In this document: positions 24,001-33,000 of the stretch, in pieces
Position numbering within the stretch: position 1 is the first letter of the stretch
How the letters are laid out: each line of letters starts with the position of its first letter
Assembly: GCA_963733035.1 (NCBI GenBank)
Contig: CAVTBU010000005.1
Coordinates: 1-64,000 of the forward strand
Direction: 5' to 3'
Source of the DNA: Pirellulales bacterium
GTDB lineage: Bacteria; Planctomycetota; Planctomycetia; Pirellulales; PALSA-1355
DNA length: 64,000 nt
Made by a program: the position numbers

Positions 24001-27000
24001 AGAATGGTACGAATAGGTCGATCCGCTCTGAGTCAGAACACCGTGCTTGACTCAGTGCCGTGGTTCGCCTTGGAGAAAATCCGAAGGCGAGGCAAATGCG
24101 GTTGATCTGACGCCAGTTTCTTGGTTCCAGCAATGGCGGAATCCAAATCTGCTCGTCGTTGTAAGTCCCTGTCGCTAAACTGCTTTTGCCGGTTTTCCGT
24201 TCAGGTTTCGGTATCGTAGTTTTCGCCCCCAGAGGGAATTCGCAAAAAACTTCCATTTCGATTTCCGGTTCGCAAATGTCACCGGTTGAAGATCTTGTAT
24301 GGACCAACTCCCCCCACCTACAGCTGCCGATTCGCCAAGTGCTGTAAGTCTGCCCGCGCTGACTCAGACGTACAAACGGAGTGGAGAGCCACTTCTGCGC
24401 TTCGCAGATGTGGAGTCAGAGATTCTGGCAGTGTTGGCGACTGATCCGGGAATTTGGTCTCCGGCTGCGTTGAAGAGTGAGACTCTGATTTACCTCATTC
24501 GATGGCTTTGGCGCATGCAACGATCAGAAAAACATCGGGAGAATGATTGAGTGCTTGGGAAAACGCATCGCTCAGATTGCGAGAGATTTCGCGTCGGGTT
24601 TCCCGCCCAACATCGCCGAAGACCTTGCGATTGAGATTGCCGAAGAGGTCAACCTGCTTATCTTCGCAAGCACGCCGAGTCGGCAAAGCGAGATTCTGGA
24701 AGTCGTCTTTCGCAGCGCGATTGAGCGGCGTGCGGTCAACAAACGCTCGAAAATCAAACAACGGTTGAAGCACGAAGTCAGCGAGTCGAGAATTCAAGCC
24801 AAGGATACTGGTGAGGACACCAACGGAATCATTGCCTCCCACTCGGACGGTAAACCAGATCCTGGCGAGATAGCACTGCTCGCTGAAGCACAACACCTTC
24901 GCCCCGAACGGATTCGAAAAGCACTTGCCGCTATCTCGAATCCACTTCATCGCGAGGCGGTCATTTTACATCATCTTCAAGGGTGGCAAATCTCAAGTAC
25001 AGCAAGCGCAATACCAACTCTCAGCACGCACTTTAAGAAGTCGTCGCGACAGATCCAGAATTGGCTCAAAGCGGCGATGAAGCAAATGCGTACTGCACTG
25101 GGAGAATCAATATGAACAGGAAGGACCAAGTGACAATCGAAGACCTCCTGGATGAAATCATGCTCCAGGAACCGGAACCCCAATACGACGCACTACTTCG
25201 TTGGTGCGAGCTCTACCCGGAGTATCGGGATCAGCTCACGAACTTCTTTGCGACGTGGGCGGAACAGAAAGAGCACGGCGAACGTCCTGAGATCGATGAA
25301 GATCGAGTCGCGAGCAGAATGGTCAGCCATGCTTTGAACTTGATTCACCACCAAAAAGCTCCGACTGCCGAAATGCGAGCCACGACCGAGTCTCGACTCC
25401 ACAAGATGATCCGAGCATCGGGATGTTCCGAACAGACCTTGATGGAGCAATGCAAACTCGATGACACGCTGCTGGCAAAGCTCGATCGCCACTTGATTGT
25501 TTTTGCGAGCATTCCTCAGCGATGTATTCAGGGAATTGCTGCGGCTCTGCAATTTGCCGTCGAGGATGTTTCGCGAGCATTGATGGGAGATCCAATTCCA
25601 TTGTCGAGCTACAAGGCGAAGGGAAAGCCGGTACTGCGACAGGAGCCGTTCCTCGACGCAGTCAAAACGTCAGAGCTTTCGACTGCGGTAAAGGAAGAAT
25701 GGAGACGAATCGTCACCAGCGAGACTTCTCACTAGGAACACCAAGATGAGTGCGTGGAAGGAAGTTCGACGTTTGCGCAACAACGCCATAGCGAGTACGA
25801 TAATGGCGCGGACGCACTCATTCCGGCAAGTGCCCTTCTGGCTGCCGCACAAGCGGTAACAGGAATTAGGTTCATCAGTCGGCCTGCAGATGACACCCTT
25901 CTGGATGGAGCCGAGGCTGCATACGATCGAGAACGTCAGAGAATCTACTACTCGAATGCAACTCCGCTGCCGCTTGCGCATTTCCACATTGCGCATGAGT
26001 TTGCACACCACTGGCTCTATGAAGCCGCCGCGGCCTGCGCCAATGCGGATTTGGACCTGCTGGTTCCTTCAGAACCGGAGATGTCCTCCGTCGGAGATCA
26101 GGACTCGTATAGTCCCAAAGAACGAGCTGAAGCCCAGGCAAATCTATTCGCTAGAGAGTTTCTCCTCCCTCGAAACAAGCTTCGACAACGTTGTGCCAGC
26201 GATATTTCCCAAGCCGATGCCATCGCTAGCGAAATCGGCGTCCCGGTCGATCTTGTAATGCAGCAATTGGCCGACGCTCTGTTACTGCCAGCCGAAAGTA
26301 ATTTGCAATCTGAACCGCGCCCTGAAACCGAGCCAGACGCAAGCCAGCTAGAGGCAATCACCGCTACGGATGAGCCACGACAGGTCAGAGCAGGTCCTGG
26401 AACCGGAAAGACAAGAACTTTAGTCGGACGAATCGCCCACTTAATCAACAGAGGTGAAGAACCATCTTCGATTTTGGCACTCACCTACTCCAATCTGTCT
26501 GCTCAAGATCTGGCGAGTCGGATTAGTGCAGAAGTTGGAGAAAAAGCCACTGCGATTTGGTCCGGAACGTTCCATGCTTTTGGACTGGAACTTCTGCGAA
26601 AGCATGGGCACTTACTGGGCTTTGAATCTGAACCAAAGCTTCGCGATCGCACCGATTCATTGATGCTGCTGGAAGACCTGCTTCCATGTCTGGAACTGAG
26701 TCACTATCTCGATCTGCACGAGCCGATGCTGAAACTGCGCTCGATACTCGGGGCTATCGGTCGAGCAAAAGATGAACTCGCCTCACCTGACGACTACATG
26801 AATGCTGCCAGGGCGATGGCTGAGGAAGCTACCGACCAAGATTCACAGAAGGCGGCAGATCGAGCGATAGAAGTCGCCCGAATCTACGCAATCTACGAAG
26901 CAGCGTTGAGGGAGCGAGGCTTTGTCGACTTCGGCGATCTCGTCGCCTTGCCAATCAAACTGCTCCGTGATAACCCCGAGGTGCGAGAAGCAGTCCGCAA

Positions 27001-30000: not shown

Positions 30001-33000
30001 CAAGAGGCTCCCACGGCTCGGCCGTGGGATCACGAAGCTGACCAGCCGCTTCCATTCAATCGATGGCCCGATGGTGCGTCGCGGATTCCAGCGGTCTTCA
30101 GACCCGGTTGGAAAGACGGAACTTGCCTCTACCTGCCCTGCGATCGAATCGCTGCGGTGGGGCACGAAAACTGGCGAAATGAATACCCCGCACTTCAATG
30201 GTCGCCAAGCCGAGGTGTGGTCCTCTACTTGGACGAACTTCATTCCTTACTCAATTCAAGCGACTACAAAGGAGCGCGAGGTGGCTAAACCGCTGATTCG
30301 ATTCCAGCGCAGTCTTTGGCTTCGCTGCATGACGGAGCTTCAAATCAGGAGCCACGGTCGGCACGAATCCGGGTGCTTCATTCTCGGAAGCGTCAAAGGT
30401 GATAAACGACAATCGCGTCGTTGCGTGTTCTACGATGAGCTTGACCCGCACGCATATTCGAGCGGCGTCTGCATCTTGCAAAGTGACTCGTTCACCCGCC
30501 TTTGGGAAATCTGCCGCGCAGAAAAGTTGACCGTCATCGCCGATATCCACACACACCCTGCCGGGGCGTTTCAAAGCGAAGCGGACCGAACAAACCCCAT
30601 GATTGCCCGCGCCGGTCATCTTGCGATCATCGTTCCGAACTATGCGTTTGGATGGATGTGGCGTCACCGGCTCGGTGTTTTTCAGTACGAAGGTGACCAT
30701 CGTTGGACCAACCTCAGCGGTTGGCAGGCCCGCTCCGTCCTCAAAGTCAGTTGGAGTTTTATATGATTCCAGAAGCAATGCCTTTCACCAGTGTTGACAG
30801 CGGTATGCCGAGCGCCGATACGCTCAATCGCGTTGTGAAAATCGCGATTGACAGTGGCGAAGTCACAACCGTTGCCGCCGGGTATGACCTGCTCCGCACG
30901 TATCGTGTTGGCGTTCGTGTTGGCCCAGAGGTTCAGAATTCTACTGCTCATCAGGCTGCCTTGCTGACGATCGTCAATATCGCGCGCCGTGCCCTACTTG
31001 GTGGCGTCTACATCGAAGGGAGTCTCGACACTCCGCTGCTGGTTCCGGTTCCTGGCCAACAAACACTTGCTGGAGCCGTGGCCGCCCTCGGCGGGCAGGC
31101 GATTAACGAAATTGCAGGGACTATGCCCACGCTGATTCTGGGCAATGTGACTAGCAATTCGAACGAGCACGAGGTTGGCCTGAATGTCATCTTCAGCGAT
31201 TGGCGCGGAGGCGTTGTGCCACAAGCCGATTCACACTCGCCATCCGCACAGCAGGCAATCACACCAGCAGCAGTTCTTGCTGCGGCGATTGCCGTCTCCG
31301 AGGTCTTTCAAAACTTGCGTGGCAACCCAATGGCCGGTCGGCGGCCGGTCGGCCTTTCGCTCTGGATCCCGGAGTCGATTGATTGGGAAAATGCCCCTGC
31401 CGGTCCGCTCGACATCGTATTCCCGTCGAACCTTTGGCTGATTGGGCTCGGCCATCTTGGGCAAGCCTATCTGTGGGTGCTCGGCTTGTTACCCTATGCA
31501 GACCCTTCGAAGGTGATGCTCTATTTGCAGGATTTCGATCGGCTTGCCGCGTCCAACGACAGCACCTCATTGCTCACCAGCGGCGAGCTTGTTGGTCGCC
31601 TCAAAACCAGGGCGATGGCGGAGTGGGCAGAAGCACGAGGTTTCAACGCAAGAGTCATCGAGCGCCCATTCCCCGGCGGAATGAAGGTGACCGAGAAGGA
31701 ACCTCGATTGGCACTTGGAGGTGTCGATAATCCGCAAGCACGGGCCGCATATGAAGATGCAGAATTTGACTGGATTGTTGAATCCGGATTGGGGGCAGGT
31801 CCGACGGAATACCTTGCCCTGCGCCTTCACACATTCCCTGCAACTACCACGGCACGCCGGAAATGGAGTGATGTTGATGTACATCGTGCCCCAGGGCCGA
31901 ATGTAGCTGCTTACCAGGATTTGTCGGCCAAGGGCATGGATGACTGCGGATTGGTTCAACTCGCCACGCGGTCTGTGGGGGCACCGTTTGTCGGCACGGT
32001 GGCCGCGTCGCTTGTCATCGCTGAAGTCCTGCGTTTTCTAAATGGAGGTCCTAGGACAGAGGTGATCGACATGACTCTTCGCGACCCAGGCAGTCGGTCA
32101 GTGGTGTCGGCAACGACTCAGTTAAATGGCTTCAATCCAGGTTTCACCTACTAACTTTCGACCCGAATGACCGGACGTTGCACTTCGGGCCGGGCTGCTC
32201 CGGGCTCCGCTTATGCTCGGTCCGACTGCCGCAAGCCACAGCCGGACTGCTTCGCACCCTGCAATCCTTAATGCGGCGGGCGATGCCGAGAATTGAAGGC
32301 TGGTTCGCGATTCTAATCCACCCCGCTCCGCGCTCGCTGCCATTTCGAGCCATTTGAGACGGCCTGTTTGCAGCGCATCCATGAGGAAGCCGCTGTCAAG
32401 TCGATAGCGAGAAGACCACGGGATCTCCAAGCATCCATCCGGCATCTCCGCTCTCGGGCGGACCGCCACCTTTCTATTTTCGGCCACTCCCATTCATTTG
32501 CGCGGCGTCGCAAAGTCGCCATGCGCTGCACCGGGATGCGGCATCGGATCCCGCTATCTCCTTGAGTGTTTCCCCTCAAGCCACAGACACTTTTTCCTGC
32601 CACACCTGGCCCTGGCGGAGCATCGCATGCATCACGCGGGCCAGGTAGTGGGCCGTGGCCACCAACGCGATCTTCTTTCGGTCATCGGCGCCTTGATGAA
32701 TGCGCTCAAAGAAGTGGCGGATCGTCGGGAATCGCCGCACTCCTTGCCAAGCTGCCTCAGTCAACAGCTTTCGCACCGTCGCTGGTCCTTCGCGTGTAAT
32801 GTGCCCCAGCCGGTTCATCGAGCCCGATTGGTCCTGAGCAGGAACCAGACCAAAGTAACAGCCGATCGACTTGGTCGTGCGGAATCGGCTGGGGTCATCG
32901 AGATAAGCCGCCATCGCCTCCGCGGTGCGTGCGCCGACACCGGGGATCGTTACCAACAACGCGGAAGCTCCGCTCGCCTGCGAATGGCGTTCAAGCTGCT

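Follow-up and report, generated by a model that had tools for sequence, protein, structure and literature searches.

The stretch of DNA that was analysed (the window, 64 kb) carries seven ORFs, g639 to g645, all on the + strand and in the order given by the initial annotation; the ORF strands, the layout and all quoted PADLOC and Pfam scores were obtained again. Homologues were searched with g641 as the query, which returned 78 relatives in 77 loci, and synteny was sampled in the first 61 loci, of which 47 were at least 13 kb in length. Within these 47 loci, BilA, BilB, BilC and BilD were found downstream of the g641 homologue in 28/28/28/28; g640 lay upstream in 38 loci and g639 in 27. The order 639-640-641-BilA-B-C-D was preserved in 28 of 28 loci. 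The counts reported earlier (45 loci; 28/28/29/28; 35; 23) differ slightly from these.

The sigma core of g639 (24543..25115, +; 190 aa as called) contains a sigma-2 and a sigma-4 domain, as in ECF (group 4) sigma-70 factors. Neither g639 nor g640 had a match in Pfam or PADLOC. Relatives exceeded the Pfam cut-offs for Sigma70_r4_2 or Sigma70_r2, the 50 VIA rows obtained with the g639 model were sigma factors without exception, and the best Foldseek matches were ECF sigmas; g639 is an ECF-type sigma factor. The start of the gene, previously placed at 24543, was corrected to 24299: an 83-aa ORF (24299..24550, +), for which Pfam gave no match, encodes an N-terminal extension that is split from the core by a 1-nt indel in the window. 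An extra base is present near 24514-24515 relative to locus L001 (88-94% identical). A homologous stretch was found in 29 of the 32 loci with a g639 match, and in every one of them it runs on without a break, in the same reading frame, into the g639 homologue.

In the product of g640 (25112..25735, +; 207 aa) an XRE helix-turn-helix (HTH; residues about 92-162) lies between a helical N-terminal domain and further helices at the C-terminus. The g640 start and the sigma stop overlap by 4 nt, as in 40 of 56 relatives. The gene lies directly behind the sigma gene in a co-transcribed layout, and this place is the classical position of an anti-sigma gene. No anti-sigma domain was listed for residues 5-85 by a VIA-wide search, and none of the anti-sigma families of Pfam was found among 42 members. 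The scores of the XRE domain against CapH, DdrO and ImmR were tied with those against other XRE proteins.

The third gene, g641 (25754..29119, +), codes for a fusion protein of 1121 aa (Pfam: Peptidase_M78 3.5e-11, UvrD-helicase 3.9e-63, UvrD_C 5.1e-29 and PDDEXK_1 5e-11; PADLOC: GajB model, 2.4e-65). The M78 peptidase domain (residues 37-170; 25862..26263, +) contains the HExxH motif (H81-E82-xx-H85) and the third zinc ligand (E126) of CapP, IrrE and ImmA. In the family, H81/E82/H85 are kept in 47/46/47 and E126 in 47 of 47 members, and C95/D99/D101, in the loop after HExxH, in 44/46/43. A PDB sequence search returned a sole match for this domain, CapP 7t5t (E 0.068), which spans the EAQA motif. 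No GAF domain was matched in g641; the UvrD helicase starts at residue 196, directly behind M78. The motifs of this PcrA/UvrD-type SF1 helicase core (26339..28258, +; Walker A GPGTGKT, DEYQD) are invariant in 47 of 47 members, and the motor matched PcrA (1.8e-65) and UvrD (4.6e-58) over the full length.

The Cas4/AddB-like PD-(D/E)XK domain of g641 (28418..29098, +) has the four-cysteine signature of an iron-sulfur domain (C901, C1105, C1108 and C1114, in 47/47/47/46 of 47 members). D1011 is found in 46 of 47, and the motif III acid position, 1024 as assigned by sequence pattern, is occupied by R in 36, Q in 6 and H in 5 members and never by D or E, which breaks the catalytic D ... (D/E)xK pattern of AddB and Cas4. 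Because the motif III acid is missing in 47/47, nuclease activity of g641 appears doubtful from the sequence, and the earlier proposal that a helicase-nuclease resects DNA is unsupported.

The last four genes are bilA (29301..29795, +; ubiquitin-like, 164 aa, PADLOC 2.6e-46), bilB (29815..30288, +; E2, Pfam DUF7665 2.3e-61, PADLOC 9.7e-61), bilC (30281..30766, +; JAB deubiquitinase, Prok-JAB 3.3e-5, PADLOC 4.2e-60) and bilD (30760..32154, +; E1, PADLOC 1.4e-161). They are adjacent and co-directional, their PADLOC matches are nearly full length, and their order is that of known type I Bil, with no difference. BilA ends in ...RVEG, with a C-terminal glycine for predicted conjugation. The text of a preprint on known Bil genes does not contain the words 'helicase', 'regulat', 'promoter' or 'upstream'.

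Two copies of a bipartite promoter-like motif (TTCCGGTT-N11-CCGGTTGA, of the form TTCCG-N18-TTGA) were found: P1 (24263..24289, +), ending 9 nt upstream of ATG 24299, a leaderless-type geometry, and P2 (29212..29238, +), 62 nt upstream of the bilA ATG. These are the only two sites with the exact window motif in the whole 6.65-Mb genome. The degenerate form TTCCG-N18-TT[GA]A has exactly two matches in the window, both where expected, and 60 matches in 1.22 Mb of loci, mostly at the P1 and P2 places (about 19 by chance, by our own arithmetic). Among 65 distinct loci with the module plus Bil, TTCCG[GA]T occurs in the g641-bilA gap in 50 (51 matches vs 2.2 expected); in the sigma-start window it occurs in 42 of 58 loci (45 matches vs 5.3 expected), and 37 loci carry it at both places. 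The distance from the start of the motif to the first in-frame sigma start codon is 34 nt in 16 of 25 related loci, and A-tracts lie upstream of P1 at 22 of 43 sites (background, 4%). A palindromic operator was not seen, nor was anything conserved or shared by P1 and P2 beyond the asymmetric -35/-10 pair.

This bipartite, asymmetric motif is the only non-coding element that is conserved, and it stands in front of both the sigma gene and the cargo; the sigma factor is more than the accessory to the switch for which it had been taken. Since the sigma gene and bilA each have a promoter-like motif ahead of them, the seven genes, co-directional as described but not one simple operon, are probably two transcription units plus read-through. 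ECF sigma factors are recognized by a bipartite motif upstream of their own operon and of their target genes, and this arrangement is found here. Judged by its geometry, the motif quite probably serves as a promoter read by the sigma factor at both places, P1 being autoregulatory and P2 directing the cargo.

Of the 63 BilD relatives sampled, 51 have the g639-g641 trio ahead of type I Bil. In 3 of the 63 the place of the trio is taken by a divergent M78 peptidase gene, in 2 of these with an XRE HTH gene; sister Bil operons carry a canonical divergent CapH/CapP in the position of the trio. The motif is missing in the 3 CapH/CapP-linked Bil loci, and L164, which has no g641, carries it at both sites. 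Elsewhere the trio is found next to cas genes of type I-G (Cas3g in 6 of 6 loci tested; a motif copy on the minus strand in 10 of 11 loci), to a PARP-WGR gene with the motif pair (L032), to BREX BrxC (E=0) and to a second Ubl system (CEHH/E2_C-E1). In three kinds of system the cargo has a motif copy ahead of it. Some loci have no obvious cargo: GreA is next in L038 and L043, and none was seen in L040, L042, L058 and L061. The linkage to Bil, the CapH/CapP pair in the same place and the other defence cargo indicate that the trio serves in regulation or sensing and does not stand here by chance. In this respect the CapH/CapP-like switch proposed for the front half is supported, as it is by the intact M78 residues and the XRE domain; the resection step and the accessory role of the sigma factor are not.

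The M78 peptidases of CapH/CapP, IrrE/DdrO and ImmA/ImmR cleave an adjacent XRE HTH repressor upon the appearance of single-stranded DNA. The M78 domain of g641 resembles CapP in its intact HExxH and downstream Glu, and the 'EAQAxLFA' stretch aligns; its loop with conserved Cys and acidic residues recalls the cysteine switch of CapP, as far as given in the accessible text of a 2026 preprint. As with CapH/CapP, an XRE HTH protein is adjacent and the pair lies upstream of defence operons, Bil included; CapH/CapP is carried by 25 of 162 type II (CEHH/6C) Bil operons in the part of a preprint available to us. The same kind of partial source describes a single-stranded-DNA groove formed by the C-terminal HTH plus GAF domains of CapP and IrrE, whereas g641 has no HTH-plus-GAF sensor and continues from residue 196 with the PcrA/UvrD helicase and then the Cas4-like domain. 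In CapH, DdrO and ImmR the XRE HTH is at the N-terminus, and the cleavage site lies in the oligomerisation domain that forms the C-terminal part; unlike CapH, g640, with 207 aa, has its HTH in mid-protein and an additional N-terminal domain. Moreover, the trio is co-directional with its cargo and not divergent, a sigma gene leads it, and an operator-like palindrome was not seen.

A 2022 preprint, in its accessible text, lists 24 CBASS systems in which capH and capP have a sigma factor of the sigma-70 family next to them; as here, genes for a sigma factor, an HTH protein and an M78 peptidase stand together by a defence system. The novelty of a sigma gene next to such a pair is therefore smaller than had been claimed. 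The word 'helicase', a promoter analysis and a link to Bil, CRISPR I-G or BREX are absent from that accessible text. From partial sources, the ECF sigma/anti-sigma pair DdvS/DdvA of Myxococcus xanthus controls an island of CBASS plus type III-B CRISPR-Cas. There too a private ECF sigma turns on defence cargo and is encoded together with its partner; DdvA, as described in those sources, is a transmembrane anti-sigma, whereas the trio shows no sign of a membrane protein and has a cytoplasmic peptidase-helicase attached. Like the AddAB/AdnAB/RecBCD-type helicase-nucleases and Cas4, g641 has an SF1 motor followed by a PD-(D/E)XK domain with C...CxxCx5C. Its motor is nearest to PcrA/UvrD/Rep, AdnB (7e-32) and AddA (2.6e-24) being more distant, and it differs from these enzymes as a single chain with an N-terminal peptidase and in the lost motif III acid. 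Gabija consists of the UvrD-like GajB plus GajA, an ATPase-TOPRIM nuclease; the neighbours of g641 are g640 and bilA, and its likeness to GajB is limited to the helicase core.

On the best reading, the trio switches defence cargo through a sigma factor that is gated by a protease; that the front three genes form a portable, sigma-factor-based transcription switch, here for type I BilABCD, is given a probability of about 0.55. The helicase and iron-sulfur domain, which would replace the GAF domain of CapP and IrrE, have an even chance of sensing single-stranded DNA or DNA ends, formed upon infection or damage, and of thereby freeing an autoinhibitory loop of the peptidase. By analogy with CapH and CapP, g640 rather likely holds the system in its off state and is what the M78 domain cleaves; more tentatively, it might do so by holding the sigma factor instead of sitting on an operator. 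Once the helicase/iron-sulfur part had bound such DNA and the loop was released, the M78 domain would cut g640, and the freed sigma factor would raise transcription of its own operon at P1 and turn on bilABCD at P2. If this switch exists, the cargo placed behind the sigma promoter would comprise Bil, type I-G CRISPR-Cas, PARP and possibly BREX.

The elaborated CapH/CapP switch proposed earlier, in which g640 would sit on DNA as an XRE repressor of the Bil promoter, the sigma promoter or both and would be cut by M78 after the helicase has made single-stranded DNA, the sigma factor adding promoter specificity only, is judged unlikely. No palindrome or shared P1/P2 element beyond the -35/-10 pair was seen, which suits a role of g640 as anti-sigma or adaptor no less well than one as a repressor bound to DNA. 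The additional N-terminal domain and translationally coupled anti-sigma position of g640, the retention of sigma factor plus g640 in 3 loci without g641 and the doubtful resection also speak against this version.

Two further explanations are both highly improbable. Sporulation pro-sigma factors are processed, and M78 might similarly remove the conserved N-terminal extension of about 85 aa from the sigma factor, g640 having another role. The extension is present in nearly all relatives with a g639 match, is longer in non-Bil relatives, and is parted from the core by the frameshift in the window, with an ATG directly after. To our knowledge, however, all characterised M78 regulators (ImmA, IrrE, CapP) cut an adjacent XRE HTH protein, and such a protein adjoins g641 here. 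Alternatively, g639-g641 could form a helicase-based system of their own, for defence or repair, that merely lies beside Bil, the repeated motif being no promoter; the matches of g641 to the PADLOC GajB and DRT helicase models and the loci devoid of obvious cargo are in its favour, and it is opposed by the strict gene order, the frequency of the module among Bil relatives, the motif copies preceding cargo of three kinds, the loss of the catalytic acid from the nuclease-like domain and a GajA-like partner not being found adjacent to g641.

A long hairpin (29206..29306, +) was predicted in which the P2 DNA (-35 flank, spacer and -10) is complementary to the Shine-Dalgarno sequence and AUG of bilA. 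Its minimum free energy is -43.1 kcal/mol (z -5.13), and 0 of 200 shuffles were equally stable; an RNA beginning after the P2 -10 gave -14.1 kcal/mol (z -1.4), and the hairpin would be confined to read-through RNA. Read-through RNA from g641 might, at somewhat less than even odds, fold so that the ribosome-binding site and start codon of bilA are hidden by the P2 sequence, which would restrict translation to transcripts started at P2. It is doubtful that all the parts hold together as one cytoplasmic switch, in which the PcrA/UvrD motor and a catalytically dead, end-binding iron-sulfur domain of Cas4 type sense invading or damaged DNA, M78 destroys a CapH-like protein turned anti-sigma, the private ECF sigma drives the cargo and the promoter doubles as an anti-Shine-Dalgarno; if the cargo promoter does act in this last way, read-through RNA would stay translationally silent.

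The three genes that precede bilA, bilB, bilC and bilD, namely the ECF-type sigma gene g639, g640 (a 207-aa protein with an XRE-type helix-turn-helix) and g641 (a 1121-aa M78-UvrD-PDDEXK fusion), form a module that is a variant of the CapH/CapP-type (XRE repressor and M78 peptidase) and ECF-type defence regulators. All seven open reading frames lie on the plus strand, as described in the initial annotation, and the PADLOC scores quoted there were reproduced for BilA (2.6e-46), BilB (9.7e-61), BilC (4.2e-60), BilD (1.4e-161) and the GajB-type helicase models against g641 (2.4e-65). 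No match to g639 or g640 was found in Pfam or PADLOC. BilB corresponds to Pfam DUF7665 and not to Metal_CEHH, so the architecture is that of type I Bil. The surroundings consist of mobile and defence genes: bilD is directly followed by an IS110 transposase (32576-33598, minus strand) and an integrase (33783-34628, minus strand), and the other neighbours include an Mrr-type endonuclease, an N6_Mtase fragment, an IS66 transposase, a DUF4011/MTES_1575 helicase-endonuclease and an SbcCD-like pair. The IS110-family transposase and the integrase, which is of the tyrosine type, together span 32576-34628 and fit a mobile or island context. The helicase-endonuclease is represented by two ORFs about 1 kb apart, at 5375-7966 (DUF4011/AAA_11) and 9039-11783 (AAA_12/MTES_1575/DUF3320), with a small minus-strand ORF between them; such parts usually form one protein, and the gene may be interrupted here. 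Rfam gave no match at E<=1 in 23500-32800, and the ESM Atlas returned 'hypothetical protein' clusters only.

The start of the first gene, initially placed at 24543, was moved to 24299. An 83-aa ORF (24299-24550, plus strand) overlaps the g639 start by 8 nt, and its homologue was present in 29 of the 32 loci with a g639 match; in those 29 the extension is in the same frame as, and continuous with, the g639 homologue, and the protein measures about 265-275 aa. The locus L001, in which g639 is 88% and g641 94% identical to the window, served as reference. Relative to it, a single base is added in the window at 24514-24515, and ATG 24543 lies immediately 3' of this frameshift. The split of the sigma gene may come from a sequencing error, mark a pseudogene or be tolerated. 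None of the public sequencing runs contained the stretch (top share of words, 0.09), and no RNA run was listed.

A promoter-like motif, ATTTCCGGTT-N11-CCGGTTGAAGA, was found on the plus strand at 24261-24292 (P1), 9 nt before ATG 24299 of the sigma gene, and again at 29210-29241 (P2), 62 nt before the bilA ATG. What had been described as a single seven-gene operon is probably two transcription units, divided at P2. Both strands of the 64-kb window contain exactly two matches to TTCCG-N18-TT[GA]A, which are P1 and P2. In 1.22 Mb of fetched loci 60 matches were obtained, mostly at the two homologous positions, against about 19 expected by chance (our own arithmetic, with equal base frequencies). 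Across the genome (6.65 Mb) the exact motif occurs at the P1 and P2 sites only; with up to two mismatches, 8 matches were found against 10 for a reversed control. The family was then represented by 65 distinct module-plus-Bil loci, with expectations taken from the loci's own frequency. TTCCG[GA]T was present in the g641-bilA gap in 50 of 65 loci (51 matches; 2.2 expected) and in a 500-nt window with the sigma start in 42 of 58 (45 matches; 5.3 expected), and both sites occurred together in 37 loci.

Across phyla the first element stays TTTCCGGT, while the second depends on the clade, being GGTTGA in Planctomycetota and Acidobacteriota, TCTTGA in Alphaproteobacteria, CGATTG in Dehalococcoidia and CTATTT in Pyrinomonadaceae. 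With a constant first and a clade-variable second element, the motif is bipartite and asymmetric and resembles a -35/-10 pair; it is not a palindromic operator. The direct repeat CCGGTT-N11-CCGGTT of the Planctomycetota was considered as an operator and rejected, because the other clades retain only TTTCCGGT together with a different second element (TCTTGA, CGATTG or CTATTT). From TTCCG to the first in-frame start of a full-length sigma gene the distance was 34 nt in 16 of 25 distinct loci, 35 nt in two and 36 nt in one, and it is 36 nt to the sigma start codon in the window; the second element thus ends 7-9 nt before the ATG, a geometry of leaderless mRNA. Of the P1 sites, 22 of 43 have an A-tract 5-30 nt before TTCCG, as do 11 of 51 P2 sites (background, 4%). 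The motif stands at both sites in L164, a locus with sigma gene and g640 and without g641, and was not found in three Bil loci that have a canonical CapH/CapP pair instead of the module. Two tandem copies occur upstream of the sigma gene in an Acidobacteriota locus (L004:6432 and 6494). The palindrome AAGATCTT at 24286-24293 shares bases with the end of the second P1 element and with the presumed start site; L001 retains AGATCT.

A scan of genome contigs with g641 gave 78 relatives in 77 loci, and gene order was counted in the 47 loci of at least 13 kb among the first 61. The synteny claimed in the initial annotation held: all four Bil genes follow g641 in 28 of the 47 loci, with their order kept in 28 of 28. 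Upstream of g641, g640 was found in 38 and g639 in 27 of the 47. By record title the hosts are Planctomycetota, Acidobacteriota, Alphaproteobacteria, Chloroflexota, Actinomycetota and Gemmatimonadota. A scan with the single BilD protein returned only five loci, and an alignment query was used instead; the best 80 of its 372 relatives were kept, a sample biased to the window's Bil clade, and in 63 of them the sequence reaches 5 kb or more upstream. A full-length g641 homologue lies directly upstream of the Bil genes in 51 of these 63. The other 12 comprise two loci with a broken g641 (L124 and L161), one with a PDDEXK remnant only (L119), three with sigma gene and g640 only (L135, L164 and L166), three with a divergent M78 peptidase gene, accompanied by an HTH_3 gene in L131 and L154, and three with something else. 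These divergent M78 and HTH_3 genes correspond to canonical CapH/CapP and occupy the place of the module. The sigma and g640-like genes that stand directly before bilA, with no M78-helicase gene, are at L135:5114-6444, L164:3281-4761 and L166:4705-6131. One of the three loci with something else, L086:1651-7033 (Anatilimnocola sp. NA78 chromosome), is the nearest Bil relative beyond the clade of the window (identity of BilB-D, 84-90%) and is without the module; its bilA is cut to residues 98-164, and an opposite-strand gene for a 1752-aa RHS-repeat protein runs into it. Tautonia sociabilis GM2012 carries two complete seven-gene loci on two contigs (L007 and L008), with proteins about 60% identical to the window's and both promoter motifs in each.

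Loci of the g641 sample that have no Bil genes keep the sigma gene (about 260-315 aa), the g640-like gene and the M78-UvrD-PDDEXK fusion. In Pyrinomonadaceae and other Acidobacteriota a divergent type I-G CRISPR-Cas operon lies beside them, with Cas3g in six of six loci tested (down to 1e-269) and with Cas8g/Csx17 and Cas7g; a minus-strand copy of the TTTCCGGTTT motif is directed at this operon in 10 of 11 loci. In L055 two motif copies on the minus strand point towards the cas genes, and at L063:4408-5758 a HIRAN-domain gene (PADLOC PDC-M03B models) and a gene that matches DnaJ weakly lie between the module and cas3g. In L039 (Chloroflexia) BREX BrxC/PglY follows the module (E=0), and no motif was found at that locus. 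In L032 a PARP-WGR gene is preceded by TTCCA-N17-CTATT, as is the sigma gene, and these are the only two matches in the locus. In L065 an M78-UvrD gene and a separate PDDEXK_1 gene precede a Ubl system of a second kind, made up of DUF2604, Metal_CEHH, JAB and a Prok-E2_C/ThiF fusion. Some loci with the three genes have no evident cargo, and GreA is next in L038 and L043. Synteny in the BilD and g641 samples, which are independent of each other, indicates that the module behaves like the portable regulators known for defence operons; it is widespread, in many phyla and with at least three kinds of cargo. A LexA gene (LexA_DNA_bind and Peptidase_S24) lies, at L061:5161-5970, close upstream of a module copy with no obvious cargo.

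Pfam matched Peptidase_M78 (residues 37-170, 3.5e-11), UvrD-helicase (196-476, 3.9e-63), UvrD_C and PDDEXK_1 (889-1115, 5e-11) in g641, and conservation was counted over 47 full-length members. The M78 motif is intact: H81, E82 and H85 are kept in 47, 46 and 47 members, and E126 in all 47. E126 lies within an EAQAxLFA stretch that HMMER aligns to CapP (7t5t, E 0.068), the sole PDB sequence match of the M78 domain. The loop after HExxH keeps C95 in 44, D99 in 46 and D101 in 43 of 47. In CapP, according to the accessible text of a 2026 preprint, a 'cysteine switch loop' (C114, D117 and D118) blocks the zinc site until single-stranded DNA binds. The two loops have a similar position and composition, but HMMER left their cysteines unaligned, and a g641 counterpart of the switch loop is only a lead. 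In the motor, Walker A and DEYQD are invariant in the 47 members; over its full length it is closest to PcrA (1.8e-65), UvrD and Rep, and further from AdnB (7e-32) and AddA (2.6e-24). The C-terminal domain has the Cas4/AddB four-cysteine signature (47, 47, 47 and 46 of 47), and motif II D1011 is kept in 46 of 47. With PD-(D/E)XK motifs assigned by pattern, motif III reads R-L-K, the acid position being R in 36, Q in six, H in five and D or E in none. As this acid is missing in 47 of 47, canonical nuclease activity, and with it the DNA resection proposed in the initial annotation, is without support. PDB searches of the nuclease-like domain, with a single sequence and a 30-sequence profile, gave chance-level rows only. 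The iron-sulfur domain of AddB binds DNA ends, and by analogy we infer that the C-terminal domain of g641 may do so.

The protein g640, encoded by a single copy in the genome, belongs to a family of 1354 clusters at 50% identity. Pfam scans of 42 relatives gave nothing beyond weak HTH matches, and a VIA-wide search listed no anti-sigma domain for the N-terminal part of g640. In the proposed mechanism the helicase motor would sense DNA, the M78 domain would cut g640, g640 would hold the sigma factor, and the sigma factor would read P1 and P2. The earlier interpretation is partly supported, with cleavage of g640 retained as a putative step and resection dropped. How bacteria silence costly or self-harming defence systems until they are required is an open question. 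Four regulators of this sort were found in print, namely CapW/BrxR, CapH/CapP, CapK/CapS and DdvS/DdvA, the last a membrane-anchored ECF pair that, in the accessible text, controls CBASS and CRISPR. The module would be a fifth design, merging proteolysis of an HTH protein with a private sigma factor and placing an ATP-driven DNA motor as sensor. As far as the accessible text goes, the preprint of Chambers et al. (2023) counts 25 Bil operons with CapH/CapP among 162 of the CEHH/6C class (type II) and describes the pair as divergent 'in all but one case', and Lau et al. (2022) give one sentence on sigma factors beside CapH/CapP, the word 'helicase' being absent. The accessible parts of the 2026 CapP mechanism preprint, the CapK/CapS paper and the Bil preprint of Hör et al. 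do not mention the module. No description of an M78-UvrD-nuclease fusion with a sigma factor was found in the literature searched; the supplementary tables of Chambers and Lau may list such cases. The sigma factor of the module, with its short and well-defined promoter, is also a candidate orthogonal expression switch.

The RNA of 29205-29310, which covers P2, is predicted to form a single long hairpin of -43.1 kcal/mol (z -5.13), a stability that none of 200 shuffles reached. In it the bilA AUG is paired to the flank of the -35 element, the Shine-Dalgarno sequence CGAGAGAGG to the promoter spacer GCUCUCUCG, and CUUCAACC to the -10 element GGUUGAAG. RNA that begins just past the -10 element forms a small inner hairpin only (-14.1 kcal/mol, z -1.4), with the ribosome site open. 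No terminator-like site was found between g641 and P2, and both arms of the predicted hairpin would occur only in read-through RNA from g641. It is possible, and slightly doubtful, that the hairpin keeps read-through transcripts untranslated and so would gate translation at P2; a promoter acting as anti-Shine-Dalgarno sequence, if real, would be a compact insulation of the downstream unit from read-through. When 10 P2 regions were aligned with MAFFT, RNAalifold recovered only the inner hairpin, whose stem has three compensatory pairs, and a short stem, and not the long outer helix; the evidence for the latter was then taken from per-sequence folds with controls. The -10 hexamer has an exact downstream reverse complement in 32 of 51 loci, against 7.5 after shuffling, and the paired sequences are clade-specific (GGTTGA/TCAACC, GGTTGT/ACAACC, ACCTCTTGC/GCAAGAGGT and CGATTGTCC/GGACAATCG). 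In 37 of 51 loci the promoter part pairs with 8 or more of the 20 nt of the Shine-Dalgarno-to-AUG stretch; the number of loci falls to 23.2 (maximum 28) with a shuffled promoter part and to 23.9 with promoter parts swapped between loci. Measured by these controls, the pairing effect is real; it is strong in the window and moderate over the family as a whole.
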